This document shows, one piece after another, positions 4,391-40,438 of a stretch of DNA of 64,000 bases. The translations under genes and the position numbers were made by a program. The notes beneath the pieces were generated by a model. That model was given only the letters and a program-made list of their open reading frames with translations. It was not told the DNA's origin and did not search any database. Each line of letters opens with the position of its first letter. Positions within the stretch are counted from its first letter, which is position 1. The stretch is from an uncultured delta proteobacterium (lineage in GTDB: Bacteria > Desulfobacterota > RBG-13-43-22), in assembly GCA_963838485.1 (NCBI GenBank), contig CAWIRY010000115.1:74162-138161 (forward strand). Direction: 5' to 3'.

Positions 4391-5230
4391 TCAAGATTGG
4401 CCGTGGGGCTTTAGACTATGGGCAAAGCGGGCGATGGTTTTAAAATATTCCTGACCACAAAGGGCAATGATGTCGTTATGGCCGGCCCTGGGGATGACGA
4501 TTAATTCTTTCCGCTGGGCCCCGGAATTTTTTAACAGTACATCGGCCTCCTTCAAGGAGATCAATTCGTCAAATTGGGCGTGCAGGATCAGGGTGGGCTT
4601 AGTGACCCCGGAAATCTTCTGGAAATTTCGAAAACCGTCCTTTTCCTGAAGTCCCAGGTGATCTATCGGAATCCCGATCAGCTTCAACAGAGGCAGGGAG
4701 TAGGCAAAGCCGCTTTCAATAATCAGTCCGGTTATTTTTTCCATTTTTTTTGAGGCGATTTCAACGGCCGGGGCGCTGCCCAGGGAACGCCCCATGATTA
4801 ATAAGGGTCCACCACGCCCCCTTTCCCGAGTCCATTTAACAACCTGATCGAATAGAGTTAAGGCATCGGTAAGAAGAGTGCCGATGGAGGGGATCCCCTG
4901 GCTCCTTCCGTATCCCCGGTAGTCCAGGGCCAGAAGGCTTAAACCCAATTGCTGATAGATAAGACCGGCCTCGTCGTAGTCGGAAGCGATCTCTCCATTG
5001 CCGTGAAAAAACAAGAGATGGGGGCCGACAGGATCGGAAAGATAAAAACGGCTTCCGATCCGGATATCCGGTTCCACGGGAAAAAAATGGTCTTCCGAAC
5101 CGGCCGGAGGGGAAAGGCTTTCGTCCGGGCGGGGATAAAAGATCAGGGAGTTTATCTCCGGCTGATCGAAAAAAGAAAGGGAATTTAATGATTCCGTCAC
5201 GACTTCTCCTTGGTGTGTTGTTGTTATCAT
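4391..5230 (-). CDS. Alpha/beta hydrolase
   Basis: FHGNGE, DYRGYG, GRSLG nucleophile, AGHND. Confidence 0.88.
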   Translation of the reverse strand: MITTTHQGEVVTESLNSLSFFDQPEINSLIFYPRPDESLSPPAGSEDHFFPVEPDIRIGSRFYLSDPVGPHLLFFHGNGEIASDYDEAGLIYQQLGLSLLALDYRGYGRSQGIPSIGTLLTDALTLFDQVVKWTRERGRGGPLLIMGRSLGSAPAVEIASKKMEKITGLIIESGFAYSLPLLKLIGIPIDHLGLQEKDGFRNFQKISGVTKPTLILHAQFDELISLKEADVLLKNSGAQRKELIVIPRAGHNDIIALCGQEYFKTIARFAHSLKPHGQS

Positions 5231-5332
5231 TAGCGGCTCCCATCAAAATGTCAAGAACCATTTAAAAAATGCTTGACAGATAACCAAGGGCATGATTAGG
5301 TTTCCCATTTTCGTTCAGAGGAGATTCATGAT

Positions 5333-6056
5333 ATGCGTATTAACAGTCGAAAGCCCGACGAAATCCGTCCGGTCCGCATCATTCGAAATTATGTCAAACA
5401 TGCCGAAGGTTCTGTTCTGATCCAGTTGGGGGAAACCAAAGTCATCTGCACGGCCTCTCTGGAAGAAAAGGTCCCTCCTTTTTTAAGAAACAGCGGTCGG
5501 GGATGGGTCACGGCCGAATACGCCATGTTGCCCAGGTCCACCAAAACCCGGATCATCCGTGAATCTACCCAGGGCCGGGTCGGGGGACGCACCCATGAAA
5601 TTCAGAGGCTGATCGGCCGTTCCTTGCGGGCCGTCATGGACTTGAGTGTAATTGGGGAGCGGACCTTCTGGATCGATTGTGACGTAATTCAGGCCCGACG
5701 GTGGCACCAGAACGGCCGCGATTACCGGGGCCTATGTAGCCCTATACGATGCGGTCGAATATCTTCGAAAAGAGGTGTCCATTCCCCGGGACCCGATCAT
5801 CGATTCCCTGGCGGCTATCAGTGTCGGAGTGGTGGACGGCCGGGTTTGTCTGGATTTAAATTATGAAGAGGATTCCAGAGCGGAGGTGGATTGTAATTTC
5901 GTCATGACCGGCCAGGGTCGGTTTATTGAGATTCAGGGAACGGCCGAAGTAAAGCCTTTTCCCAGAGAGGACTTTGATAAGATGATGGACCTGGCTGTTC
6001 AGGGTATCCACAAGCTGACGGCGATCCAACATCAGGTCCTGAACCCGAAATCATGA
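5333..6056 (+). CDS. rph: Ribonuclease PH, frameshifted at ~5694-5696
   Basis: [25 protein letters not shown]; removing one C of CAGGCCCGACGG restores [14 protein letters not shown] and joins [15 protein letters not shown]. Confidence 0.88.
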
Positions 6057-6670
6057 TTTTGGTCCTGGCCTCCAAAAACCAGGGGAAAATAAGAGAAATC
6101 GAAAACGCCCTGGTCATTCCCTCCCTGACGTACAAGTCCTTAAACGATTTTACGGGCCTGCCGGAAATTATTGAGGACGGTTCATCCTTCCTGGAAAATG
6201 CCTTTAAAAAGGCAGAGACCATTTCAAAAGCCCTCAATCTTGCGGTCATGGCCGATGATTCGGGGCTGGAGGTTGATTTTTTACAAGGGGCTCCGGGGAT
6301 TTATTCGGCGCGGTTCGCCGGGGTTCAAGCGACCGATCCGCAGAATATTCAAAAACTTCTGGGTTTGCTTACGGGGGTGCCGGAAACAAGAAGGACCGCC
6401 CGTTTTGTCTGTGCCTTAGTCCTCTACCTACCATCAGGACCGTGGTTTCAGGCCAAGGGGATCTGTGAAGGCCGTATCGCCCTGTCCCCGGAAGGGGATC
6501 AAGGGTTTGGCTATGATCCGGTTTTTTATCTGCCGGAGTTTCAGAAGACCATGGCCGAGCTTCCTTTGGAGGTCAAGAACCGGATCAGCCACCGGGCAAA
6601 GGCCTTGGAAAATATGCGGCCCCACCTCCTTTCGGTTTTAAAGGCTTCTGTTGGGTCATCGAGTCATTAA
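6053..6670 (+). CDS. rdgB: Non-canonical purine NTP pyrophosphatase (XTP/dITP)
   Basis: ASKNQGKIRE, ADDSGLEV, GFGYDPVF, KNRISHRAKA; follows rph. Confidence 0.92.
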   Translation: MILVLASKNQGKIREIENALVIPSLTYKSLNDFTGLPEIIEDGSSFLENAFKKAETISKALNLAVMADDSGLEVDFLQGAPGIYSARFAGVQATDPQNIQKLLGLLTGVPETRRTARFVCALVLYLPSGPWFQAKGICEGRIALSPEGDQGFGYDPVFYLPEFQKTMAELPLEVKNRISHRAKALENMRPHLLSVLKASVGSSSH

Positions 6671-6860
6671 GTCATTAGTCATTGGTCACTAAGTCAATTG
6701 GGTAATGACTTAATGATTTATAAAGGGCCTCATAATAATGTCGACATACGATCCCTCACCCTCGCCCTCTCCCCTGTCTGCGTGCAACGCCCAGGCAGGC
6801 ACCAGGGGAGAGGGAACCGAATTAACTTCCTCCCCCTTGATGGGGGAGGATAGAGGTGGG
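6662..6860. repeat. Cluster of palindromic/short-unit intergenic elements
   Basis: AGTCATT 7-mer run with inverted copies (6662-6718); CCCTCACCC..CCCTCTCCC..GGGAGAGGG and CCTCCCCC..GGGGGAGG hairpins. Confidence 0.6.
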
Positions 6861-7000
6861 TGTGGTTACCTGTCGAAATTATTCTGAGACTGGTAATAAT
6901 AACTCGATGACCGGGGTCCATGCTTATTCCAGTATCCAGCATCAAGAATTCAGTATCTATCTGTTGCCATTAACCGAGCTTTGTGGTAAAAATCAATCAT

Positions 7001-7078
<78 letters not shown>

Positions 7079-7136
7079 TCTTATCAGTGGATTGGAAAGT
7101 CTGGATATTCAGGTTAAACAAGGTCAAAAGGGGAGC

Positions 7137-7502
7137 ATGAAAATGAACCAGGAAACGGCCATGACATTTAATGTCCTGATTAAAGAAGAAGAGGGGATGT
7201 TCATCGCTCATTGTTTGGAGTTGGATCTTGTAACGACTTCGACAAGCCTGGATCAAGTTCAAACAGATATTCTCGATGTTATCGGGGCTCAGGTAGACTA
7301 TGCCTTTACCAATAACAACTTGGAATATCTTTATCATCCGGCCCCGCAGGAAGTGTGGAAGGAATTTTTTGAATGTCAGGAAAAGTGGGAGAAGAGACAC
7401 AAGATCGCCCCCCTGTTTAAGGAAGAAACCGCCACGGATATTTTTGTTCCAACCTGGATAATCGCGCATACATGTAAACGAACCAGCCGTTGCCATGTCT
7501 AA
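7137..7502 (+). CDS. HicB-like antitoxin
   Basis: VLIKEEEGMFIAHCLELDLVT..LDQV matches HicB N-terminal pattern; overlaps next gene. Confidence 0.65.
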   Translation: MKMNQETAMTFNVLIKEEEGMFIAHCLELDLVTTSTSLDQVQTDILDVIGAQVDYAFTNNNLEYLYHPAPQEVWKEFFECQEKWEKRHKIAPLFKEETATDIFVPTWIIAHTCKRTSRCHV

Positions 7503-23427: not shown

Positions 23428-26400
23428 TCAACTTGCCATCTCAACAAATTGGTCAAGACATTCCAGCCAGACTATCATTGATTTCCACGCCTCATCTGCA
23501 TTGTTGAGTTTCAATTCGACATGCGCTACCCTTGTATTACGGAATTCGTTGACTTTCTCTAATTTGTAATAGAGGCTTTTCATTTTTGACCCTGAAAACA
23601 ATTTAGCCACGTCTTTCCATACGCCTGTTGCACCTAAGCCACCGTCTTTTGCATATCCTAAGCAAAAGAGTAATGTGCCTAGTTTCATTATAGAGCGCCC
23701 GAATACCAAATTATCTTTGAGGTAACGGCCATATTTTTCGAGCTGAATGCGATCTCTTGTTTTAAGCGTATCCAGATAGGGACTAAAATAATTTTCTCGA
23801 TCCTGCTGACTGGTAGGTATTTTAGGTGTAAGTTGCTTGTCAAGTATTCGAATAGCATAATCATCAAGCGGATGAAGCAACGGTTGAAAAGCATGTCCAA
23901 ACTCTGGCATTCCAGAACGGATAGCGTGATCCAGAAGAGTTATTGCCTGCCTCATTTGTCCTTCTACAGCAGTAGGAGCCTTCTGAATACCTGCTTCCCA
24001 AAGGACACGGGAAAACAACTCTTCGGCCTCCTTCTGAGCTGTTTCTTCGAAGAGCGGTAATTCCTGTTGGCCGGTTTTCGCCTCTTCTATCAATCCTCGA
24101 AGAGATGGTTCACAGGCCCTTGATAATTCTTCGATCGTTGATGCCGCACTCTGCTGAAACAGGTGATAAGGGATATATAAAAAGCGCCATTTAACCCTTC
24201 CCTTTGAACCGGCCTTACACCATTCAACGGCAGCCCGGACCTTTACGAGAACGAGATTGTCAACCTTGCCCTTAAGCTCTACGAGGTAATAACTGTTTTC
24301 CTTGCTGCGAATGAAGAAATCCGGGACATACAAGGCTCGATGTCCATCTGGCTTCATATAATCGATCATCAGTTTTTGTGGACCTGCATTCTTCGCAGAA
24401 GCGATAACGTCGGATGCATAATCACAGAAATCAACAAATGCCCTTTCAAATTCATTTTCGCAGGGGACCAGATTAAACATGGTTTTTTTTGCTTGGACAG
24501 CGGGCCTCTTGTCGTTACTGGTAGCCTGATAGGGTTTCCATAAGGATAAAATCTGCCCTTGGCTGATCCGCCGCCGCTCCTTTTTTCGGACGATTTTGTC
24601 TAGAATCAGGGGTGTGAAGGTGGCACGGATGTGTTCCATCACATCGATGTCGCGCATACGATGATCGACATCCCCGGCGTAAAGGTCTACTTCACGTTCA
24701 AAAAGGACCTTCGAGATGAATTCCTCAATCACGGGTGTTAAGATACTGTGTGGATTGCTGACATGGCAGGCTCTTCCCAATTCCTGTGCAAAATAACTCG
24801 CCGCTGACCATGCGTTACTTAGAAGACCTACGTCCACCTTCATCTTGGCGACAACTTCGTCAGTAAAAAGATGCCTCTCCTCATATTCAATAGATTCAGT
24901 TTTTATCTTACCAATCGGCAGGCGGTAAAAGCGTTTCTTTGTCTCGAAAAACTCTCTTACCTCATCAATGGACAACCCCTTTAATTCTGTGCTCATTTCC
25001 ACAGAATCCGAAATTAAAGGGATTTCAATTTCCAGATCCTTAACAGGCTTTTTCTCATGATCAACAAAAATGGTCACAGTTTGTTTGAATGCTTCACGAA
25101 TGGGCAGGTAAGCAATATCGAGACCTTCTTGGGCCAGTTCCTCTTCATATAATTTTCGGAAGGCGGGATGATGGACGACAGTGACTATTTCCGGAGTCTC
25201 GGCAAGTGGGAACATGCGCCTCAGTCCTCGTCCTAATGTCTGTTCAGGAAGGATGCCGGACTTTGCGGAATATGGACGCAAAGGAATGATGGTTGTAACG
25301 TTCTTGACATCCCAACCTTCGCGAAGCATCATGACGGAAACCACACAACGAAATTTACTGTCCTTTTTATCTAGTTCGCGGGACATCTCACGTAATTCCC
25401 GAAGGTCTTCCGGTTTCATGCCCGTTTCCTTTTCCACGAATTCCTTGACTTCACGGCCACCCCGGATGAAGGTCTTTATTTTTCCCTTCAAGCGGGTATG
25501 GATATTCAAAACCCGTCCTTTCAGAAGAGGAAACTGTTTACTGTCCAGATAGTCCGTGATTTCATTCGCTGCGTCTGCGTCTTCAGTCATCACAAAAAGG
25601 ATGGGTTTTCTGACCTTATTCAGTTCCTCATAAGTCTTTTCATAACGTTGATAACCAAGTTGAAGGTGCATATTATATCGCTGATGGGCGGGTGTTCTAT
25701 TATCTCCCCTGATGACCAACGCATCTGATTCTCCAATGACAGGAACCTTAACGATGCCAGCATCTACTGCTTCGCCAAGAGGAAAATCACAAATGATATG
25801 ATTAAAAAGATTACCGTCGTTGTATTTTGGTGTCGCAGAAAAATCCAATTGAAGCCGCACTCCCCGATTCCCCTTACTTAGGCTTTGACTATGCAAAGCA
25901 TTAATAGCTCTGTTCCAAGCAAGATCAGGATCATGGAGGTGATGAGCCTCATCATTCATAACCATGACGCAAGGATGGCTTGAAATTCTCTCTCGGAGAG
26001 CAGCGCCTGTGTCCAGTGCCTTAGCTTTCTTGACAGGAGGGCCGAAGATAGATGCCTTATCGTCATCTCCTTCGTCATTTTCATCACGTGATTCATAGAG
26101 GCGGTGAATGTTTGTCAGATAAATTGTGCCCCTTGTGCTTGAGCCACCGGGATTATCCTGTAGTATGACTTGCATTTGAAAGTCATTAACCCAATCTGTA
26201 GGCAGGAGGGGATCTTTGTAGAAAATTGAACAGTTCTCAAAATCATCTTTTAATCGTTCATAAACTGTCAAATTTGGTGCAATAATAACAAAATGCTGGG
26301 GCAGGTTCGAATCGGTTTCACGGAGCCGATGGAAATAACTCCATACGATTGCCAGACTCATTACTTTGGTTTTCCCACCTCCCGTTGCTATTTTACAACA

Positions 26401-26853
26401 ATCCTTTAGCCATCGATCGTCTTCAGGGTTGATGCCAAGGGCAAGATCGGCGATGCCCTCGCTGCCGAATTCAAACATAAGTTCCATTACATTGCTGATT
26501 CTGCGCATCTCGCACAAATAAATGATGGTTTCAATCGCTTCTCTCTGTGCCCAATGATACCGAAAGGCTAAAGATTCACCTTCGCCGTTTAATATCAAAT
26601 GTTCCGATTTGAACCAGTAATTAAGCAAGGATATTGAAGTTTCGCTAATACTCGCATAACCACCTCGTCGCCATCCATCGACTTCTGCTCGAATCGATCT
26701 TACCAATGCACATTTACTGGGGCGGCGGCCAGGTTCAATAATTGCCGATGCACCCGGTACCGAGTTAGGAAGACGATGCATAATCGGCTCTTCCCACGGC
26801 TTGAACAATGGTTCAAGAGCGGCTGCATTTTTTTCCGTGACCTCAAAAGCCAT
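23428..26853 (-). CDS. res: Type III restriction enzyme Res subunit
   Basis: ATGGGKT, DEAHH, LREGWDV, EQTLGRGLR, YVPDF..VELKG. Confidence 0.9.
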   Translation of the reverse strand: MAFEVTEKNAAALEPLFKPWEEPIMHRLPNSVPGASAIIEPGRRPSKCALVRSIRAEVDGWRRGGYASISETSISLLNYWFKSEHLILNGEGESLAFRYHWAQREAIETIIYLCEMRRISNVMELMFEFGSEGIADLALGINPEDDRWLKDCCKIATGGGKTKVMSLAIVWSYFHRLRETDSNLPQHFVIIAPNLTVYERLKDDFENCSIFYKDPLLPTDWVNDFQMQVILQDNPGGSSTRGTIYLTNIHRLYESRDENDEGDDDKASIFGPPVKKAKALDTGAALRERISSHPCVMVMNDEAHHLHDPDLAWNRAINALHSQSLSKGNRGVRLQLDFSATPKYNDGNLFNHIICDFPLGEAVDAGIVKVPVIGESDALVIRGDNRTPAHQRYNMHLQLGYQRYEKTYEELNKVRKPILFVMTEDADAANEITDYLDSKQFPLLKGRVLNIHTRLKGKIKTFIRGGREVKEFVEKETGMKPEDLRELREMSRELDKKDSKFRCVVSVMMLREGWDVKNVTTIIPLRPYSAKSGILPEQTLGRGLRRMFPLAETPEIVTVVHHPAFRKLYEEELAQEGLDIAYLPIREAFKQTVTIFVDHEKKPVKDLEIEIPLISDSVEMSTELKGLSIDEVREFFETKKRFYRLPIGKIKTESIEYEERHLFTDEVVAKMKVDVGLLSNAWSAASYFAQELGRACHVSNPHSILTPVIEEFISKVLFEREVDLYAGDVDHRMRDIDVMEHIRATFTPLILDKIVRKKERRRISQGQILSLWKPYQATSNDKRPAVQAKKTMFNLVPCENEFERAFVDFCDYASDVIASAKNAGPQKLMIDYMKPDGHRALYVPDFFIRSKENSYYLVELKGKVDNLVLVKVRAAVEWCKAGSKGRVKWRFLYIPYHLFQQSAASTIEELSRACEPSLRGLIEEAKTGQQELPLFEETAQKEAEELFSRVLWEAGIQKAPTAVEGQMRQAITLLDHAIRSGMPEFGHAFQPLLHPLDDYAIRILDKQLTPKIPTSQQDRENYFSPYLDTLKTRDRIQLEKYGRYLKDNLVFGRSIMKLGTLLFCLGYAKDGGLGATGVWKDVAKLFSGSKMKSLYYKLEKVNEFRNTRVAHVELKLNNADEAWKSMIVWLECLDQFVEMAS

Positions 26854-26855
26854 GA

Positions 26856-28922
26856 TTAAACCTCCACGTCGATAACTGTCGTGGTATCTACACCAAAAAC
26901 ATCAATCACCTTGACGCAAATCTTCTTATTGCCCTTATTCTTGTATTCCCAACCAATGTATGTTCTTTCTTTTAACGAGCGATCCTTTCTGGTTCGAAAA
27001 TCCTGCCAATGATGTTCAAATGGCTTGTTTGCGCTCCAGTCAAAATCAACAGCCCAGAAATCAATGAAATCAAAAGGTGATTTTACCGCGCGTTCCCTCA
27101 AGGCGGCCATTTCAGATTCTGGAGCTTCCGCCAACGCCGGGGAGAAACGATTCAATTTGACATCAATCTTCTTTCCCTTCTTGACAGCTTTTACCTCCAG
27201 GGCTCCAGCCTCAAAGAACTGGCATTCCCTCCGGTTCGGTTCCATGATTTCTCTTGGGATGTATTTCAACTTGATGTTCAGACCGCTTTCTGCCTCGATA
27301 GCCTGTTTCTTATGGGATAGTTCCATTTCAAATTCCCATGCAAGACAATGAAGCTCTCGTCCTCCGGCAGCACTCGCCGCTTCTGATATTGTGCGGAGTT
27401 CTTCAAAGGTAAAAATGCCATCAATATGATGCACGTGAACAAAAGCCCCGTGTTTTGTTCCGTGCAGAAGGGAATTTGATGATAACTGTAAAGGAGTTGC
27501 TTTATAGAATTGAAGAACAATTTGGCGATGTTCCGTATCGGCACCCTTGAGGCGCTCCATTTGCCACCATTGGCGTTCGTAACGACCAAGATTATAGACG
27601 TCGAAGGAGCGATAAGGCTTGCTATCTGCATGCAGCTCCCGCTGAACTTGAATGAGGCGTTTACGGCTAACGTGTATGGCATAACGACCTAAATCTACAC
27701 CTATCCAACGTCGGTCGAGTTTCTCGGCAACAGCCATTGTTGTACCAGAACCAGAAAAAAGGTCAGCAACGAGGGCGCCTTTGTCAGAGGATGCACGGAT
27801 AATGCGCTCTAAAAATGGCTCAGATTTCTGCGTCACATAAGCATTTGGGGCATTGTCGTAAGCATAGATATCAGACCAATCGGTATCGGCTGCGATTTCC
27901 TCTTTAGGTTCGACCCAGTAGTAACAGCGTGTTGCCCCTGGCTCGCGCTTGATAAATCTCTTCGATTTCCCAGTTTTTATCCAGTAATCGAAGAGGGTCA
28001 TCTTGTCAGAATACATATCTAGGTATTCTTGGTAGTTCTGCACTGCGAGTTCCGCTTTGTCTCTTGTCCAGCGCCACTGTCCATCCGCAAGATGTATTCC
28101 CAGCAGCGGATAACGTAATGTTGGACGGTCAGCATTATTCCAAAAATTGTTCCACTGTTCGTGATTTGATTCGGGTGCCTTTGTCAATGGAGCACGAAAT
28201 CGAGCAGATATATTCATTGAATACCATAGAACTGAGTCACAAGCGATATTCAAACGAGATACCGTGTCAAACTGATTCTGTAAGTTTTTTGTTTTTCTCT
28301 TCGCATAGATTTCATTCCTGAAATTATCACTTCCAAACACATCATCCATTAATAAGCGTAGGGATGAATTGACTCGATAATCACAATGCACATAAATGCT
28401 ACCTTTTTCACTAAGCAAATCTCGCATCATTGTAAGGCGTTCGTACATCATGTGCAGGTAGGAATCCGTACCTTTACCCCAAGTATCCCGATAAGCTACA
28501 GATTCTAGGATAGACTGCTCCTTCTGTACGGCTTCGCCTTCTTCCCCTAGTTGCACCTGCATGGTGAAATCAGCACCCACGTCAAAAGGAGGATCATTGT
28601 AAATCAAATCAACCTTGCCTCGGAACTGGTCCAACAAAGCGGCCATTGCCAGCTTATTGTCCCCCCAGATGAGAATGTTACGAAAATCATCTTGATGAGC
28701 CTTCATTGAATCAAATAACAAACCCTGGGCAATACTGCGGTCATGGGGCTCATCTATGGCTTCGATTCGTTGCAACGGTAAAGGGGTTGAGGGAAGTTTA
28801 ACGGGACGCCGGTTCCCATATTCATCGTATTTGCCTTCCCATACCAATCCAGTTTTCAATTTCGATAATGGGTGCGGATTTTCCGGACCCCACGTATGAT
28901 TAGACATGTTTTTTTTATCCAT
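26856..28922 (-). CDS. mod: Type III R-M DNA methyltransferase Mod subunit
   Basis: DPPF motif IV precedes DLFSGSGTT motif I (beta class); directly upstream of res. Confidence 0.92.
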   Translation of the reverse strand: MDKKNMSNHTWGPENPHPLSKLKTGLVWEGKYDEYGNRRPVKLPSTPLPLQRIEAIDEPHDRSIAQGLLFDSMKAHQDDFRNILIWGDNKLAMAALLDQFRGKVDLIYNDPPFDVGADFTMQVQLGEEGEAVQKEQSILESVAYRDTWGKGTDSYLHMMYERLTMMRDLLSEKGSIYVHCDYRVNSSLRLLMDDVFGSDNFRNEIYAKRKTKNLQNQFDTVSRLNIACDSVLWYSMNISARFRAPLTKAPESNHEQWNNFWNNADRPTLRYPLLGIHLADGQWRWTRDKAELAVQNYQEYLDMYSDKMTLFDYWIKTGKSKRFIKREPGATRCYYWVEPKEEIAADTDWSDIYAYDNAPNAYVTQKSEPFLERIIRASSDKGALVADLFSGSGTTMAVAEKLDRRWIGVDLGRYAIHVSRKRLIQVQRELHADSKPYRSFDVYNLGRYERQWWQMERLKGADTEHRQIVLQFYKATPLQLSSNSLLHGTKHGAFVHVHHIDGIFTFEELRTISEAASAAGGRELHCLAWEFEMELSHKKQAIEAESGLNIKLKYIPREIMEPNRRECQFFEAGALEVKAVKKGKKIDVKLNRFSPALAEAPESEMAALRERAVKSPFDFIDFWAVDFDWSANKPFEHHWQDFRTRKDRSLKERTYIGWEYKNKGNKKICVKVIDVFGVDTTTVIDVEV

Positions 28923-31437: not shown

Positions 31438-32183
31438 GTAGAGTAGGGAACTGGCGCCTGGCTGGAGCCGCTTTTGATCTTTTGGATGCACGCATCTACT
31501 AAGAACTATAACGGTCAGGGGTTTCCAGCTCCCCCTCGTCAAACCGTACGGTCGGTTTTCCCGAATACGGCTTTCCAATCATCTTCTTCCAAAGGCATTC
31601 GCTTTCGCTTGGCCTTCTGGTATATCTTCCACCGGAGTTTTCGGAACACACATGGAGTTTATAGCGTTGCCGCAATCTCCTTTCCTTCCCTCCTTCAGAA
31701 GCATGATGAAGGTATTGCCCCTTCCCTCTCTCAAGGTTATGTTGTCCTTGGGATGCAAGCGGTACTATTGGCAACTCCGACTCCCTCGCCGACCCGGTAA
31801 AATTTCGTTTCCTTATATTTACCAGTTGCTGCTTCCGCAGCATCGGCAAGGGTCTCCCGTGTTCATTGTCGTATGGCTTCCCCTGCGTGTCACCCCTGTT
31901 ACCCCGGAAGCTCATCTATCGGTTATGGTAGTTACTGTTAGGATAGATGCACCGGTCTTCCCCTGTGTAGGAGAGGGTCGACAACTCCATTGTAATTTTC
32001 GAGGCTACATCCAGGTTCGCTTGCGCTGCAACCCGCAGATTTGCCCAGCTTCCTTAAGAAGCCTTTGTCAGGGAACTTAGTGCTTCAGGTTACCCTTAAC
32101 ACCTCCCTCAAGCTACGTGGGCGAACTGCCGAACTCCCACAGTCGGACTTTAACCGACCAGTCATACGTTTTACACGGCATAC
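31438..32183 (-). mobile_element. Group II intron with internally deleted RT/maturase ORF
   Basis: 5' GTATG, domain V GAAAGCCGTATTCGGGAAAACCGACCGTACGGTTTG, 3' CCCTACTCTAC; EBS1 loop CCTACA matches exon TGTAGG. Confidence 0.85.
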
Positions 32184-32308: not shown

Positions 32309-33118
32309 TTACTGATTAAAAGTAAGAATATGGTGGCCGAAATTACCTGATTGATCGGCAGCTAAGATTTGAAGTTTCACCTCATCAAAGCCTGCTGGCG
32401 GAGTTGTCCTGCCTTCGAATAGACTTGGCTTTCCGGCATATTTCAAATTGAATTTTTCTGAAACCTGATTTCCGGAAAGCCATTGTCCCCATATTTCAAA
32501 TTTGTTCGAGTCCCAGAGACCTCCGGGAGTGATGTGGCACCCTCAAAGCATCCCGATTTCAACCATCACATCAACTTCTTCTCCCTTTTTTAATGGAATC
32601 TTAGAAGCAGGGGATACAATATTTACGATCAAACCACGCAACTGAATGATCACCCCCTCACCTAAAATGTGTTTCCCAGGGATAAGGGTAAGCGTCATTG
32701 AACCTTTCTGGATGGCATGAGGATAGGCAAGAGGAGCCTTAGCGGAGATCTCCACCTGAGTTGGCTTATCTAAAAAAAGCTCGGCCTGGTAAAAAGCAGC
32801 TCCAGGAGTCCCATAGAGGGGTTCCCCTCGTTTGTGCGGTCGAATCATAATTTGGTCTGTATTGCCCGTTCCCCCTTCCTGTTTCCCTTCTGCAAGGATT
32901 TCTTCATTCTCCAGATTCTTGATTTGGACAAGCGCTCCCCCGACGCTCGATCCAATCACTTTAGCATCCCACGAAACAACCCGAACAATTACCTTAGTCG
33001 AAATCTTTTCAGCAGAAAAAGACGGATGAACAAAAGAAATAAAAAGAAAGGTTCCTGTGAGGATCGTAATAAAGAATAAGAACAATATCAACTTTCTCAT
33101 CTTAGTGCCTCCTTTCAT
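32309..33118 (-). CDS. Exported protein with in-frame UGA (32543-32545), putative selenoprotein (MLUGC)
   Basis: frame continues 77 sense codons after TGA (GCHITPGGLWD...GNFG) to TAA; hairpin TCCCGGA-GGTC-TCTGGGA 14-32 nt after UGA. Confidence 0.75.
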
Positions 33119-33255: not shown

Positions 33256-33586
33256 TCAGATCGCAGTTTCGCCGGTCCTTATTCTGATCACTTGATCGAG
33301 GGTCGAGACGAATATATTTCCGTCGCCTATCTTGCCGGTCTCGGCCTTTTCCTGGATTGTTCTAACGACCTTTTCGACGAGGTTGTTTTCAGTGATCACT
33401 TCAAGCCTTACCTTCGGGATAAAGTCGACGTCGTTTTTGGCGGCGCGGTAAAACTCGATGTGGCCTTCTTTTCTTCCGAACCAATTCACCTTGGTCACCG
33501 CTATCCCTTGGATACCGATCTCGTTCAAGGCATCTTTGACTTCATCGAGCTTAAAGAGCTTGATGGTTGCTTCTATCCTTTTTATT
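33256..33586 (-). pseudogene. glnB: Degenerate P-II nitrogen regulator
   Basis: (I)KRIEATIKLFKLDEVKDAL..TGKIGDGNIFV..VIRIRTGE; start codon is ATA and T-loop Tyr is lost. Confidence 0.7.
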
Positions 33587-33675
33587 TTTTAATTTTCTAT
33601 GGTTTTCGATTTGAGAAAATTTTACTTTCCACTATAATTTTCAATCTGTCAGCGGTTGACTTTGCGAATGCTGGA

Positions 33676-34106
33676 ATCCGGGTTGGCCGTGATCGCCAGC
33701 TAAAGACCTCTTTGGTCCTGGAGGCCCTGCGGATGGCCTATTGGCGCCAGAAACCGACTCCGGGATTGATTTATCATTCCGATCGGGGCTTTCAATATGC
33801 CGCCGGTGACTATCAACGCCAACTGGAAATTTTCCACATGATCCCCAGTATGAGCCGCAAAGGGGACTGCTATGACAACGCGGTAGCCGAAAGTTTTTTT
33901 CATACCCTATAAACCGAAGAGGTTGGAGATCAGGCATACTCGTCCCGGGAAGAGGGCCAGCGTGCGGTTATCGATTATATCGAGATGTTTTATAACAGCC
34001 GCCGCCTCACTCCTTCCTGGGGCATGTCTCCCCCAATGATTTTGAAAAAAAGTTAACCTTGTCTATGGTTGCTTAACCGGGTGTCCGTTTTCTCTTGTCC
34101 AGATCA
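33676..34106 (+). pseudogene. IS3-family transposase remnant with right end
   Basis: YHSDRGFQY, SMSRKGDCYDNAVAESFF, internal stop/frameshift, YIEMFYN, ends ..GTGTCCGTTTT..CCAGATCA. Confidence 0.8.
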
Positions 34107-34756: not shown

Positions 34757-35224
34757 TCATCTTCCGCTACTACTATCCGGTTTAGAAAGGGTTCGAATAT
34801 AGGCAATTAGGGTAGTAAGATCCTGGGTCTTAAAAAGACCGCCCCATGAGGGCATAAGTGAAGAGAGGCCGTGCGCGGCGCCTCCGTCTCTAATAACCCC
34901 TTTGATTTGTTCATCAGACAACTTGGCTATGAAAGTCGGATCGGCTAATTTTGCGGGCGGAGTGGCCAACATGTAAGCATTAAAACCATCCCCATTTCCA
35001 GTGGCGCCGTGGCAAAGGACACAATAATAGTCATACAAGACCTTTCCCTTTTGTTCGACAGAGGTGAGTTTGGATTGTTTTTGCGGAAGTAAAAATCTTG
35101 ATTTTTCTTCTTTGGTTGGAGGCCCTTGAGAAGAGGGTTTTTGGCATTCTCCCTGGATATCCAGGATGAAAAGAATCAAGGCACTGACCAATATCATGAG
35201 GGATAAATATTTTGTCATACCCAT
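34757..35224 (-). CDS. Monoheme class I cytochrome c
   Basis: signal/TM, CVLCH, LMPSW. Confidence 0.88.
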   Translation of the reverse strand: MGMTKYLSLMILVSALILFILDIQGECQKPSSQGPPTKEEKSRFLLPQKQSKLTSVEQKGKVLYDYYCVLCHGATGNGDGFNAYMLATPPAKLADPTFIAKLSDEQIKGVIRDGGAAHGLSSLMPSWGGLFKTQDLTTLIAYIRTLSKPDSSSGR

Positions 35225-35234
35225 TCCTTTTCCT

Positions 35235-37199
35235 TTACTTGGGAGAAGCCAAAAAGGCCGCCATGGCTTCGACTTCCTTATCGGACAGTTTATAAACCGG
35301 CTCCACCGAGCGTTTTACAAAGGCCTTGGGATTTCGTAGATAATAGAGGATCCATTCGATCCTCAATCTGTCCCTGACCTTGGTCAGGTCCGGTCCGACA
35401 AGTCCGCCTTTTTGATTAATCTGATGACAGGCCTGGCAGGCGTATTTTTGGTGGTAAAGGATTTTACCGGCCTGGATGAGACCTGGATCACGAAAGGCGG
35501 CCCCTTTGATCTTGCCGCTCAGGTCCTCCACCCGGTCATCTACCAGGGTCGTATCAAAATAGGCATAGAGGATTTCGATTTCCGAATTCTGGATTTTGAA
35601 TTGGGGCATACGCTCCACCAGGATGGGCCGGATGGTATCGGGGGCCTTCATAAATTTCTCCAGCCAGGTCTTCTTGACCCGGCTCCCTTCCTGGGTCAGG
35701 TCGGTGGCCATTTCCCCGCCCTTTCCAAGGATTTTATGGCAGGTGAAACAGCGGTACTTGTCCAGGACCCTCCCGAATTTTCCCTGAGGGGCGTAGGTCG
35801 AAGGTCTCTCTCCCAAAGGCAGGGTATAGGCTGCCGGGACCTCCTGGCCTTTCATTCCCAACAGGAAGGTGGTTACTGCCTCGGCTTCCCGGTCGCTGAA
35901 GGAATAATCGGGCATCTTTAAATCCGCTTTGAAGAGCCTGGGGTTTTTCATCTTGTTGTACAGCCAGTTGGGAACGGTCCGATCCTTGGGGGCTACTGGG
36001 ATAAGACCAAAATCCAGATGGCTGATATGGATTGCCCCGATGGTGGTCAACTCCAATCCGATTTCCCCGCGATCCTTAACGCCTTCTATCTTGGTATGGC
36101 AGCCTGTACAACCCTGTTTTTCGATCAGTTCCTTGCCCCGTTGTTTGCTGCCCCCCTGGACCAACCGGGCCTGACTGGCAGCCTGGGTTTCATCCAATTC
36201 CAAATCGATATATTGATTGACCAGAAAGGTGACGATCTTTCGGATTTCCTGGTCGGAAAAACTATAGATGGGCATTTGTGAAGAAGCCCAGAGCTCATGG
36301 GGGTTTTTGATGATCCGGATAAGCCTTTCCGGGACCAGCTTGGAGGAGATCTTGCTCAACTCGGGTCCTATGGTGCCCCCTTTACCTTCCACGGAATGAC
36401 AACTGACGCAACGGGAATCGCCGAAGATTTTTTTACCCTCTTCGATCGATCCGCCCAACTCGACGCCAGTTGGTTTGCCCCCTTGAAAGAGAAGGGCGGC
36501 CACATCCGCCGCTTGTTGCGAGGAAAATTTCGGGTTGGGCATTTTCGTCCGGGGGAGATAGCTTCTGGGATTTAAGACCCAGCGATAAAGCCAATCTGGT
36601 TTGACCCTTTGACTCATCCGGTCCAGCGGAGGCCCCACTATGATTCTTTCTTTTCCCCTGACCAGGTGACAGCCCCGGCAGCCGTGATCCTGGAAAATGG
36701 CCCTTCCTTTGGCCAGGACCGGTGCCTGGTCCTGGATGAAATCGCCATGGCACAGTCCGCAGGAGTTCTCCATAAAGACCTGGTTGTAGAGGGCCTGATT
36801 CCAATTTTCCACCGGCCCGTGGGCGTCCTGCAAGGGAGTGGCCAAGCCCTGACCCCCATGGCAGATAGTGCAGCCGAATTTTTCGAAATCGTGGCCGCCG
36901 ATATCGGGATGGGACTGGAAGGGCTGAGGGGCATTTTGGAATCTCGGGTCATCCATCCCAAGATGGCAGGTCTCGCAGCGATCGGTTTTTTTTAATTTTT
37001 CGATCCACCGCTGGCGAACCCCGAACTGAAAGTCCGGGCTTTTACCGGTCAGGGTGGCCTTTTGGATTAGGAGTTTTTTAAACTGCTTCTGATAGGTCCG
37101 ATAGGAAGGGTTTGAGTTTTTCCAGACCTGTCCGATAAAAAGGAGAAAGACTAATAGGGCTAAAAATGGAAATATTTTTTGGAATAGGTCTTTCATCAC
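35235..37199 (-). CDS. Membrane-anchored octaheme cytochrome c
   Basis: 8 CxxCH motifs (CETCH, CTICH, CGLCH, CRGCH, CVSCH, CTGCH, CFTCH, CQACH). Confidence 0.9.
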   Translation of the reverse strand: MMKDLFQKIFPFLALLVFLLFIGQVWKNSNPSYRTYQKQFKKLLIQKATLTGKSPDFQFGVRQRWIEKLKKTDRCETCHLGMDDPRFQNAPQPFQSHPDIGGHDFEKFGCTICHGGQGLATPLQDAHGPVENWNQALYNQVFMENSCGLCHGDFIQDQAPVLAKGRAIFQDHGCRGCHLVRGKERIIVGPPLDRMSQRVKPDWLYRWVLNPRSYLPRTKMPNPKFSSQQAADVAALLFQGGKPTGVELGGSIEEGKKIFGDSRCVSCHSVEGKGGTIGPELSKISSKLVPERLIRIIKNPHELWASSQMPIYSFSDQEIRKIVTFLVNQYIDLELDETQAASQARLVQGGSKQRGKELIEKQGCTGCHTKIEGVKDRGEIGLELTTIGAIHISHLDFGLIPVAPKDRTVPNWLYNKMKNPRLFKADLKMPDYSFSDREAEAVTTFLLGMKGQEVPAAYTLPLGERPSTYAPQGKFGRVLDKYRCFTCHKILGKGGEMATDLTQEGSRVKKTWLEKFMKAPDTIRPILVERMPQFKIQNSEIEILYAYFDTTLVDDRVEDLSGKIKGAAFRDPGLIQAGKILYHQKYACQACHQINQKGGLVGPDLTKVRDRLRIEWILYYLRNPKAFVKRSVEPVYKLSDKEVEAMAAFLASPK

Positions 37200-37227
37200 T
37201 ATTACCTTTTTTAACGACTGGAAGAAC

Positions 37228-38358
37228 TCAATGGGTGGGCCAAGACTGCCATGGCCAATAAAAGACCCAGCCCGGCCCCCTCAGGAACTGACCAATGATA
37301 ATCAGACCCAGGTATACCGTGACGGCCGCGGTAAAAAGGATATTGGCCCGTCTGCGGCTGGGGTGAAACCAGACCCCGATCCCTTCCCCACCCCGATCGA
37401 AATAGGGGATCAGGATTATCAGGACGATCATGATATTGGGAACCAGGACTCCAAAAAAGAAAGGAGCCCCCCAGGACAAAAGTTCTTGCATACCCACCAG
37501 AAACCAGGGGGCTTTTACCGGACTGGGTGTTACCGAAGGATTGGCCGCTTCTTCCAAGGGGGCGTTAAATAAAAGGGATATCCCCATGACGATGGCCAGG
37601 ACCAGGAGGAATTTGGACAGCTCTCTAACGACGATATCCTGCCAGCGGTGCTCCGGATCGGAAGGGGCCTGGGGATTTTGGCCTTCCTGGAAATCCAGGT
37701 GTCCGCCCCAGAGGGCCCAGGCAAAAAAGTCGTCCTTGCGGATCCGCCAAAAATGAACGCCCATGAGCAATCCGATCACCAGAGGAATGATTTTAACATG
37801 CATCCCGTAAGCATGGGCCAGGGCGTTTTGCCCCACCTCGTTTCCGCCCAGGATCAGATATTTGAGCTTTGCTCCGATAACCGGCGCCGAGGTGACTACA
37901 TTGGAGGTAATGGTCATAGCCCAATAGCCCTTCTGGTCCCAGGGCAGGATGTAACCGGTTATAGCCATGACTATTGTGCAGAGAAATAGGAGCAGCCCGG
38001 TCACCCAATTGAATTCCCGGGGTTCCCGGTATTCGGCCGTAAAAAAAACGCGGGACATGTGCAGAAAGACCGATAAAAGCATCAGGTAAGCGGCAAAGCG
38101 GTGCATGTTGCGGAAGATCAGGCCGAAGCTGACCACGTATTCCAGGTCCTTGATCCCCTGGTAAGCCCTTTCGGTGTCGGGGGTGTAATAGAACATGAGC
38201 AGGACCCCTGTTATGGTCAGGATGATGAAGAGATAGAAATTAATCAGGCCCAGGCCCAAGATTTTGGTCTTCAGCCACTGATTAACGGGAATTTCTTTTC
38301 GGACGACGGATTTCCAAAAACGGTTCTGGAAGAGGAGATCGTTTATGTCGGTCCTCAT
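37228..38358 (-). CDS. Cytochrome b of Rieske/cytochrome b complex
   Basis: RNMH..LHMSRVF, GYILPWDQKGYWA, MH..VHFW, KAPWF (PEWY equivalent). Confidence 0.92.
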   Translation of the reverse strand: MRTDINDLLFQNRFWKSVVRKEIPVNQWLKTKILGLGLINFYLFIILTITGVLLMFYYTPDTERAYQGIKDLEYVVSFGLIFRNMHRFAAYLMLLSVFLHMSRVFFTAEYREPREFNWVTGLLLFLCTIVMAITGYILPWDQKGYWAMTITSNVVTSAPVIGAKLKYLILGGNEVGQNALAHAYGMHVKIIPLVIGLLMGVHFWRIRKDDFFAWALWGGHLDFQEGQNPQAPSDPEHRWQDIVVRELSKFLLVLAIVMGISLLFNAPLEEAANPSVTPSPVKAPWFLVGMQELLSWGAPFFFGVLVPNIMIVLIILIPYFDRGGEGIGVWFHPSRRRANILFTAAVTVYLGLIIIGQFLRGPGWVFYWPWQSWPTH

Positions 38359-38396
38359 GATCCGGGGTCTCCTTGGAAACGCTTCAGCCTTGGCCT

Positions 38397-38855
38397 TTAG
38401 ACCGAAAGGGTTTTTTGGAAAGGTACTAATCGACTCTCATCCACCTGGAGCCGACCGTCCGCGGTTAAAGTGACTTCATACCAGGGAAGGGGGTTTTGGG
38501 CCGGACCAACGGTTACCTGTCCCCGGGCATTAAACAGGCTGCCGTGGCAGGGACACTCAAACCGGTTACGCTCGGCCGACCATTGAACTGAACATCCCAG
38601 ATGGGTGCAGACGGCTGAGACGACCTTGATGAGATTTCCTTGGCGGATGACGAAGATCCTTTTGTCATCAAGATAATCCACGCCCTCAGGGTAGTCGTCG
38701 GGCCTGTCGATCTTGAAGATCTTGGGAGGCTCGTAAAGGACGTTGGGAATCACATAGCGGACGGAGGCTCCGGCCAGGCCTCCAAAGGTCCCTAAGGTGG
38801 CCAGCCAGCCGATACGATTCAAAATATCCCGCCTGGTGTATTTCTTATCGCTCAT
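38397..38855 (-). CDS. Rieske 2Fe-2S subunit (Tat signal)
   Basis: TRRDIL, CTHLGC, CPCHGS. Confidence 0.93.
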   Translation of the reverse strand: MSDKKYTRRDILNRIGWLATLGTFGGLAGASVRYVIPNVLYEPPKIFKIDRPDDYPEGVDYLDDKRIFVIRQGNLIKVVSAVCTHLGCSVQWSAERNRFECPCHGSLFNARGQVTVGPAQNPLPWYEVTLTADGRLQVDESRLVPFQKTLSV

Positions 38856-38895
38856 GTCTATCTCACGGCCCCAGCCTTGGGGCGGAATCGCTTTC

Positions 38896-39019
38896 TTAGC
38901 GCTTTATCAGGGCCACCAGGATTTCGGCAAGGACCAGCAGAAACACTCCTAACGCGCCCGCCGCCGATAACCACAATCAGCATTTCCTTGGGCAAACTAT
39001 AATCTTCCTGATTATCCAT
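38896..39019 (-). CDS. Small single-TM protein (~40 aa, one-base frameshift)
   Basis: MDNQEDYSLPKEMLIVVI/..GALGVFLLVLAEILVALIKR* after removing one G. Confidence 0.45.
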
Positions 39020-39061
39020 TTTGAGACTCGGCCTCATTTAATTATTTTTTGTCCGAAATTT

Positions 39062-39775
39062 TCAAAATACTCGGCTTCTCTGGTATATTCTGGAAGTCAA
39101 CTTGCCGGTTATAACTTCAAAGTCTGGTTTCTCTCGAAGACGATGGACCCAACCTGTTTTAAAGTCAGGCCACCAATATAAGCGATATGTCCCCGGGGGA
39201 ACTTTTTCAAAAACGTACCTTCCCTTAGCATCCGTTTGCGTATTCAGTGAAATCCCTTGATCTGTTTCATAAGATTCTTTATCGTCTCTCGAAAGCATTT
39301 TTTTAACAGAAGCCAGTGAAACACCGGTATAGTTTTCGAGTTCGATCTTAACCTTTCCGTTGACCAAAGGCTTCCCCTGCCAGAGAATAACACCCTGCAC
39401 GCTCCCCAATTCTTCCTGTAAAAGTTGTTCGTGGAGGTCCCCTTTTTTGGCAGATTTAGGCGGGGTAGGTGATGAACTACCAGTCCCCTTGCTCTCTTCC
39501 TGCATTATTTCGGGTCGGGGAAGCGGGATCGGTGAGAGTCCGGTCTGCTTGGGTTCGGCTTGCTTTTTCTCGAGACGTTCGATCCTTTTTTCAAGCTGTT
39601 CAAGTTTCTCTAATATTAGTTGTGTGTCCGATTTCTGAGCTCCTTTATCTTTTAAACCAATCTCATCTCCAAGGCAGTAGGTCGGAGACAACCACGCCGT
39701 CATCAAAACGACCAGCCCCATCAGACTCATGAGTCGTCCGGCACCTTTGCGGATGATCGTTCCCGACATCTTCAT
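39062..39775 (-). CDS. Exported coiled-coil + carboxypeptidase-regulatory-like domain protein
   Basis: signal peptide, LEQLEKRIERLEK, TDAKGRYVFEKVPPGTY. Confidence 0.7.
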   Translation of the reverse strand: MKMSGTIIRKGAGRLMSLMGLVVLMTAWLSPTYCLGDEIGLKDKGAQKSDTQLILEKLEQLEKRIERLEKKQAEPKQTGLSPIPLPRPEIMQEESKGTGSSSPTPPKSAKKGDLHEQLLQEELGSVQGVILWQGKPLVNGKVKIELENYTGVSLASVKKMLSRDDKESYETDQGISLNTQTDAKGRYVFEKVPPGTYRLYWWPDFKTGWVHRLREKPDFEVITGKLTSRIYQRSRVF

Positions 39776-39784
39776 ATCCTTATC

Positions 39785-40438
39785 TTAGCGTTCCTTTAAT
39801 TTGTCCCGTTCGAAATCTACAGTAACAGTCTTCCCCTCCTGCACGGTTACTTCCTTGGAGGTCTCCTTGAGCTTCTCATGCCAGACCTTCAGCTTGTAGG
39901 TCCCCGGGGGTACGTTTTTGATCTCATATTTCCCGGTATTGTCAGTTAGGACAAAATAGGGATTTTGTAAGACGATAACATAACCCAGCATCTCGGGGTG
40001 AACATTACAGAGCAGAGGAACCTCGCCAAGGTTATTAAAGGTCACGGTTTTTTTGACACCTGAGCCGTAAAGGCCGAGGTTAAAGCGAGTGGCCGCGCCT
40101 GGAGGGGTGAAGACATTGTGAGCGACCGTGTTATCGTTGGTGAAGTCAACGGTAGTCCCTTTTACGACGGGTAAAACATGGGGGTCAAAAGCCAGGCCTT
40201 TCTGGCTCATAAAAGAATTCTTTTTAGGGGGGGGAAAATCACCTTTCACCTGATCCACATAGACCACGGCCGGGTACCGCTTGACCCAGGGTGTATTGAC
40301 TACCCCTTTGATTATCCCTCCTGCCTGACGGCCTTTGGTTTCCTGGGCCCGGATCGGCAGGACTGTCAAAAAAACCGACAGGAACAAGATAACGGTAATA
40401 CATAAATAAACTCGACTTTTTTTGAAATAGTTGTCCAT
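39785..40438 (-). CDS. Cupredoxin (type-1 copper) + carboxypeptidase-regulatory-like domain protein
   Basis: HNVF...CNVHPEM ligand set; signal peptide. Confidence 0.8.
   Translation of the reverse strand: MDNYFKKSRVYLCITVILFLSVFLTVLPIRAQETKGRQAGGIIKGVVNTPWVKRYPAVVYVDQVKGDFPPPKKNSFMSQKGLAFDPHVLPVVKGTTVDFTNDNTVAHNVFTPPGAATRFNLGLYGSGVKKTVTFNNLGEVPLLCNVHPEMLGYVIVLQNPYFVLTDNTGKYEIKNVPPGTYKLKVWHEKLKETSKEVTVQEGKTVTVDFERDKLKER

Follow-up and report, generated by a model that had tools for sequence, protein, structure and literature searches.

An in-frame TGA very probably read as selenocysteine in an uncharacterised family of exported two-domain proteins

The alpha-domain of DsbD (nDsbD) is a periplasmic Ig-fold carrier in thiol-disulfide exchange, and its redox-active Cys pair represents the only functional cysteines. 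Table 1 of a 2026 review lists 119 prokaryotic selenoprotein families together with their model identifiers (PMC13188914). The entry nearest in kind to the protein described here is DUF1573 (PF07610), for which that table gives the motif UGC (PMC13188914). MccSep is the multihaem polysulfide reductase of Geobacter. It is a pentahaem cytochrome, and it illustrates that an exported Ig-like domain can carry a catalytic selenocysteine (Sec) (PMC13510729). The bacterial SECIS model given in the 2026 review is composed of a loop of 3-9 nt with G in its first two positions, a stem of 4-16 bp, a UGA-to-loop distance of 16-37 nt and a folding energy of -7.5 kcal/mol or lower (PMC13188914).

The window is a stretch of 64,000 nucleotides from an uncultured delta proteobacterium, and positions are counted from its first letter. 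Its minus strand encodes a 191-aa ORF (33118..32543) that is closed by a TGA at 32545-32543. Past this TGA, the same frame stays open for a further 77 codons and stops at a TAA (32311-32309). Translated with TGA as U, the frame around and past the TGA reads ...EIGML-U-GCHITPGGLWDSNKFEIWGQW...SGNFGHHILTFNQ, and the surroundings of the U site are ...VEIGML-U-G-C-HITPGGLWD. The original prediction had described an ORF that starts at 33118, ends at the TGA and continues for 77 codons. The end and the continuation stand, but the start is likely ATG 33100 rather than 33118. ATG 33100 is preferred because AAGGAGG lies 7 nt upstream of it and because the database gene call is 185 aa long. From ATG 33100, the frame has 263 codons with a single in-frame TGA, and U is residue 186. 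The features of the locus are as follows.

32309..33100, minus strand: the whole gene of the very probable selenoprotein, 263 codons plus TAA, from the translation with TGA as U; an alternative ATG lies upstream at 33118
33108..33114, minus strand: Shine-Dalgarno sequence AAGGAGG, 7 nt before ATG 33100, from the sequence
33014..33100, minus strand: predicted signal peptide, residues 1-29, consisting of MRK, a hydrophobic core and PSFS, followed by AEK; from the sequence and a helix at residues 2-23 in the AlphaFold2 (AF2) model
32633..33010, minus strand: N-terminal beta-sandwich domain, approximately residues 31-156, with conserved DAKxIG and GGTGxT..IM motifs; from AF2 and VIA-align
32312..32632, minus strand: C-terminal Ig-like (E-set) domain, approximately residues 157-263, which carries the U-G-C loop; from AF2 and VIA-align
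32543..32545, minus strand: in-frame TGA, residue 186, very probably read as Sec; TGA in 88/88 related loci and Cys in homologues
32537..32539, minus strand: TGC encoding Cys188, the putative Sec partner in U-G-C; invariant in the homologue alignment and TGY in 60/60 distinct sequences
32511..32528, minus strand: SECIS-type hairpin with a 7-bp stem and a GGUC loop; from the fit to the published model and synonymous constraint

Relatives align with the window protein across residues 1-268, and a similar N-terminus is common to all aligned homologues. Cleavage of the signal peptide probably falls at PSFS/AEK. [quoted passage not shown]

A 77-codon open run has a chance of approximately (61/64)^77 = 0.025. 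The observation rises above chance because the TGA, the coding extension and the Cys column are all conserved across relatives. The comparison set was the DNA of relatives at 48-77% identity, 8 from genomes and 80 from metagenomes (88 loci, or 89 copies with the window), and an 84-nt region within it occurs in 68 distinct versions among the 89 copies. One rival to recoding is that the TGA is a true stop. The gene would then encode a 185-residue protein, and the DNA downstream would be a decaying remnant left by a nonsense mutation in a Cys codon, a separate small gene or a conserved RNA. Database gene calls are in line with a true stop. A search at the protein level yielded 724 relatives. The 120 best of them are 176-220 aa long, and 120/120 have gene calls that end at the TGA, with ..ML as the last residues before it. 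The window copy also lies among IS and intron remnants, and the extension is damaged in 8/89 copies. Against a true stop, the U column is TGA, and never TGY or another stop, in 88/88 related loci that span 62-77% protein identity.

The extension itself behaves as coding sequence and aligns to the C-terminal domain of uninterrupted homologues. It is open for 77-89 codons to a stop in 75/89 copies, while 6/89 reach a contig end before the stop and 8/89 are shortened by a frameshift or early stop. Among 63 distinct sequences, the entropies at codon positions 1, 2 and 3 are 0.43, 0.39 and 1.04 after the TGA and 0.43, 0.30 and 1.17 before it. These matching values on either side indicate that the extension is under the same protein-level selection as the upstream part. 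The best conserved stretch of the whole protein, GCP.TPGGLWDSNKFEIWGQW, sits directly after the TGA and precedes any start codon, the first possible one being TTG 32446. A separate downstream gene is thus excluded. Moreover, in the AF2 model the Ig-like domain would lose everything past its first strand without the extension. A true stop is extremely unlikely given this evidence. The shortened extensions were found in two groups. Five loci (L045, L119-L122) have a common frameshift approximately 80 nt after the TGA, where the frame ends after 33 codons, and in three more (L123, L046, L126) the cause is a 1-nt deletion or an early stop. Either the assemblies are wrong at these points or the copies are decaying.

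The database copies found all stop at residue 185 and are named hypothetical. Because they are cut there, approximately 720 clusters (90% identity, public metagenomes) lack one third of the sequence, active site included.

Uninterrupted forms of the protein provide the residue that pairs with U. Of 401 genomes from the phylum searched in six frames, 18 gave a match. Among these matches, 3 have a TGA (the window's own genome and 2 others) and 15 are uninterrupted. The full-length homologues read MMCGCPIKPGGLWD and similar, with the first Cys on the TGA column. The original prediction had attributed the motif MMCGCP..PGGLWD to similar exported proteins. This motif is real, since full-length homologues without a stop carry MMCGCP or PMCGCP at the U site. 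Pairing of Cys with UGA at this column had been named as a check, and Cys was found opposite the TGA in 12/12 aligned full-length homologues, with C186-G187-C188 invariant. Among the Cys forms listed by a search from one Cys form, CGC is present in 120/120, Met directly precedes it in 116/120, and 107/120 have no further Cys after residue 25. W196, which lies eight residues past the U/C-G-C triplet, and M85 of domain 1 are also invariant in the homologue alignment. An exhaustive profile search yielded 866 family clusters at 50% identity, in which the rare variants CSC, CAC, CTC and CDC retain both Cys residues. Several mutually dissimilar clusters end exactly at the U column at the protein level, which suggests additional Sec forms among them. 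No protein of 147-471 aa was matched in a word search with residues 186-269. Approximately 870 clusters at 50% identity make up this uncharacterised family, and the Sec/Cys pair identifies C-x-C as its functional centre. Among its members are proteins of cultured sulfur- and metal-reducing bacteria, in which genetic work is feasible.

The arms TCCCGGA (32528-32522) and TCTGGGA (32517-32511) follow the TGA and enclose the loop GGTC (32521-32518). In the transcript, UCCCGGA-GGUC-UCUGGGA begins 14 nt after the UGA and its loop 21 nt after the UGA, exactly the stem and G-led loop that had been pointed out at the outset. The hairpin alone folds at -9.3 kcal/mol. The GGUC loop, the 7-bp stem, the 21-nt distance and the folding energy are all within the four constraints of the bacterial SECIS model. 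The thermodynamics of the region are ordinary. The 81-nt fold is nothing unusual against shuffles (z = 0.02), and of the window's 2282 TGA triplets, 3.5% are followed by a contiguous hairpin that fits the model at -7.5 kcal/mol or lower and 2.0% by one as stable as the hairpin described here. The hairpin by itself is weak evidence, and the case is therefore built on conservation.

The six inner pairs are retained in 60/60 distinct sequences, and the six one-sided changes found in them are all wobble-compatible (6/6). The outer U-A pair is broken in 7/60. There are no compensatory double changes among these 60 sequences because the 3' arm is fixed by Leu-Trp-Asp. The third-position entropy of the invariant Pro-Gly-Gly codons within the hairpin is 0.23, compared with a mean of 1.35 and a minimum of 0.70 at 11 comparable columns elsewhere. 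The Leu codon of the stem is CTC in every sequence, while other conserved Leu columns use 3-7 codons. Cys forms that encode PGGLW do so with other codons (CCC GGC GGG CTG or CCG GGC GGC CTC), and the hairpin is absent from them. As judged from these codon choices, the hairpin is under synonymous constraint. Its predicted SECIS-like nature thus gains support from both the fit to the published constraints and the frozen synonymous sites. An Rfam search at E <= 10 across the region returned nothing meaningful. The element resembles the bacterial SECIS consensus, of which E. coli fdhF is the studied case, in that it lies within the coding region directly after the UGA and its loop starts with G-G-U. 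GGUC is presumably also the loop of fdhF. Unlike the consensus, the bulged U and the lower helix are not evident here, though a lower pairing of alignment columns 9-12 with 56-59 is possible.

A second rival holds that the UGA is read through without Sec, by near-cognate Trp or Cys insertion or by a lineage-specific reassignment of TGA. The state of tRNA-Sec in the window's own assembly (5.04 Mb, 212 contigs, 93.8% complete) is in its favour, since a whole tRNA-Sec was not found there by Rfam, ARAGORN or a motif scan. The best genome-wide Rfam match to tRNA-Sec, at 46.1 bits, falls short of the cut-off of 47, and ARAGORN assigns the same place to tRNA-Ser. ARAGORN reports 51 tRNAs and none for Sec, and its lowered-threshold candidates have poor stems. 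Rfam likewise detects no credible whole tRNA-Sec around selA, selB and selD. Against this rival, 11/12 other genomes of the genus have a tRNA-Sec at approximately 74 bits, and a fragment of it is present in the own genome. At C90:12785-12812, 28 nt are identical to the 3' end (T arm to CCA) of the tRNA-Sec of the genus and are preceded by unrelated AT-rich DNA. This fragment resembles the duplicated attachment site that an element integrating into selC would leave behind, and the intact selC is probably unassembled.

The remaining evidence also argues against readthrough without Sec. The genes selA (629.7 bits, cut-off 268), selB (379.5 bits, cut-off 242) and selD (394.1 bits, cut-off 125) are present in the own genome, so that the check on the host's machinery found all three above curated cut-offs. 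The selD gene has one in-frame TGA and is of the Sec type, and fdhA (1457 bits) also carries one in-frame TGA. TGA terminates 643/1830 long ORFs in this genome. As a common stop, it has not undergone genome-wide reassignment, and the code is standard. In addition, the column is Cys in homologues, which is the usual partner of Sec, and a conserved SECIS-type hairpin follows at the proper distance. Readthrough without Sec is very unlikely.

The locus is very probably a genuine Sec-decoding gene of an uncharacterised exported family. The original prediction of a hidden selenoprotein is supported by the TGA in 88/88 loci, the coding extension, the Cys partner, the hairpin and the presence of selA, selB and selD. 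By the standard bacterial mechanism, SelB loaded with Sec-tRNA(Sec) would bind the hairpin 14 nt past UGA-186. Sec would then be inserted in place of termination, resulting in a 263-residue precursor whose N-terminal signal peptide would lead to passage across the inner membrane. The Sec would serve as a replacement for the first Cys of the conserved Cys-Gly-Cys site.

The AlphaFold2 model, built from a 23-row alignment, has a pLDDT of 91 and a pTM of 0.80. It is composed of a signal-peptide helix and two beta-sandwich domains, and U-G-C is placed in a well-ordered loop that follows the first strand of domain 2. Domain 1 resembles carboxypeptidase-D regulatory-type sandwiches (VIA-align Z 8-9.5), and domain 2 resembles Ig-like/E-set domains (VIA-align Z 10-11). 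The matches from Foldseek and VIA-align are generic Ig-like and transthyretin-like ones only. A sequence-profile search of the PDB gave 0 matches. Searches of Pfam and NCBIfam at E <= 1 with the window protein, and of Pfam also with 23 aligned members, found no family beyond chance-level matches. Based on the model, the product should be an exported protein with two beta-sandwich domains.

In relatives, the gene is located directly behind hemE (URO-D), hemH (ferrochelatase) and a hemY-like amine oxidase gene, all on one strand and separated by 50-80 nt. The order hemE-hemH-hemY was confirmed with Pfam in 6/6 loci scanned, and the same ORF layout is found in 20/20 long loci, several of which are near-duplicates. 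This conserved place is a testable lead. The window copy is found at a rearranged spot, away from hemEHY neighbours. Upstream, at 33256-33912, is a truncated P-II gene (90 aa, profile positions 21-102), which is overlapped on the opposite strand by an integrase-core (rve) fragment below the Pfam cut-off. The P-II and rve fragments are insertion remnants where relatives have hemE-hemH-hemY. The gene is absent from 10/10 congeners and 13/13 family members searched. Given this absence and the location away from the hem genes, the window copy was probably acquired by transfer. It has 5 private changes at conserved columns, the most of any copy (median 1). The possibility that the window copy is a pseudogene was considered and is not supported, since frame and hairpin are intact despite these changes.

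Other elements of the window were also annotated. An ORF-less group II intron (31438-32160, minus strand) lies approximately 150 nt past the stop of the gene. Rfam detects its domains 1-4 at 32021-32160 (RF02003, 89.9 bits) and its domains 5-6 at 31438-31575 (RF00029, 43.3 bits), and there is no reverse-transcriptase ORF between the two matches. A restriction-modification pair on the minus strand (23428-28922) encodes a 1141-aa protein of the ResIII helicase type and an N6/N4 DNA methylase. A respiratory cluster on the minus strand (34757-40438) encodes a Rieske protein, cytochrome b, a 654-aa multihaem cytochrome c and a small cytochrome c. The same cluster includes two exported CarboxypepD_reg proteins, one of which also has a cupredoxin domain.

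The neighbourhoods of 12 Cys forms are heterogeneous and have no common partner. One Cys form, L134 (G135:C15, ~4745-7482), lies inside a long cobalamin operon on the same strand with short gaps. The order of this operon is CbiD, three tetrapyrrole methylases, the homologue, CbiG, a CobQ fusion and CobD. A second Cys form lies 60 nt from an SBP_bac_5 (NikA-type) gene, with an AhpC/TSA protein adjoining. Another adjoins rubrerythrin and AhpC/TSA proteins, one is found near CobU and one near CutA1, and the remaining neighbourhoods are uninformative.

The two residues of the site are usually the only cysteines in Cys-type relatives, and the pair is therefore taken as the active site. That two otherwise lone cysteines also exist as a Sec variant suggests a pair for redox chemistry or sulfur transfer. 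It is quite possible that the Sec/Cys pair is a periplasmic site of thiol redox or sulfur transfer, alternating between the selenol/thiol and selenenylsulfide states. Metal or cofactor binding is suggested instead by the Met-rich flank, by the invariant Trp and by neighbours connected with tetrapyrroles and metals. The M-x-U/C-G-C-P loop may, with some doubt, bind Cu(I), Co, Ni, Fe or the metal of a haem or corrinoid in the periplasm. Consistent with binding are the Met at -1 in 116 of the 120 Cys forms listed, the invariant W196 and M85, and the position of Sec forms behind hemE-hemH-hemY-like genes (6/6 by Pfam, 20/20 by layout). The Cys form between CbiG and a tetrapyrrole methylase and the single ones near SBP_bac_5 (NikA-type), CobU and CutA1 point the same way. 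An ESM Atlas look-alike cluster is auto-named 'Nickel uptake...', which is a lead only. The selenoproteins catalogued in the review table include BtuF-, CobW- and HgcA-types (PMC13188914). However, the family is without a conserved His or another classic ligand set, and the DUF4198 model, which represents a nickel/cobalt periplasmic component, does not match. Haem and cobalamin are synthesised in the cytoplasm whereas this protein is exported, the hemEHY synteny may reflect inheritance among close relatives instead of function, and the own genome has no ferrochelatase match. The remainder of the probability belongs to a function other than redox/sulfur-transfer or metal/tetrapyrrole binding.

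A more specific proposal is unlikely. The protein would be a periplasmic carrier of a tetrapyrrole (haem or corrinoid) or of sulfane sulfur, made together with hemE-hemH-hemY for cytochrome-rich, sulfur- and metal-respiring bacteria, and the Sec/Cys loop would ligate the cofactor metal or hold the sulfur chain. If true, the periplasmic trafficking of cofactors or sulfur would include a step that depends on selenium and has no described counterpart.

Among the families in the 2026 table, none of the listed Pfam, TIGRFAM and NCBIfam models matches the window protein; this comparison does not extend to entries defined solely by a cd or PTHR identifier, nor to the four that lack a representative accession (PMC13188914). 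A literature search that included PMC13188914, PMC12013277, PMC1976440, 10.1101/2022.07.06.499078 and PMC13510729 found no description of the family, though supplementary tables may list one. The original prediction had not recognised the family as a described one. The absence of a Pfam or NCBIfam match, of an entry in the 119-family table and of a description in the literature searched agrees with this, and within these sources it is a previously unlisted selenoprotein family.

DUF1573 shares several features with the window family. Both have an exported Ig-like domain in which a beta-strand is directly followed by U/C-G-C, and in both, Sec and Cys forms occur side by side in Thermodesulfobacteriota. 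The window family differs from DUF1573 in having two domains, in the distance to PGG and in the residue ahead of the motif, which is Met and not Ser. Kinship with DUF1573 is not supported. There is no PF07610 match at E <= 1 for the window protein or 23 aligned members, and the PF07610 matches in the own genome do not include the window gene. Profile-profile comparison (hhalign) gave probabilities of 9% and 4.6%, with only the strand and CGC aligned. The own genome also encodes four DUF1573 genes with one in-frame TGA each (C85:9914-10192, C8:5482-5745, C171:5538-5795 and C118:4637-4900). One of them has RPG-U-GC. In the other three the site is KIKYT-U-S/G, which lacks a second Cys and so departs from the UGC listed for DUF1573. 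Kinship with DUF4198 (PF10670, periplasmic Ni-Co uptake) is likewise not supported, as its matches in five genomes are elsewhere and not at the family loci.

The UGC-containing TlpA-family disulfide reductase (cd02966) has the U-G-C motif and export in common with the window protein (PMC13188914). The fold is thioredoxin-like there and an all-beta sandwich here. Thioredoxin-fold proteins of the TlpA, DsbA and Prx types were rejected as relatives because the model is all-beta and has no AhpC/TSA, Redoxin or Thioredoxin match in Pfam. MccSep has another Sec motif; CXXCH is absent from the window protein, and no homology between the two is detectable (PMC13510729). The resemblance to MccSep is architectural only (PMC13510729). 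By analogy, nDsbD could be a model for a U-G-C loop that shuttles electrons. It is absent among the best 50 VIA-align matches. It differs in its Cys spacing, and the window protein is free-standing with an extra N-terminal domain. Recognition of this family adds to the bacterial selenoproteome an exported pair of beta-sandwiches that is not thioredoxin-like.
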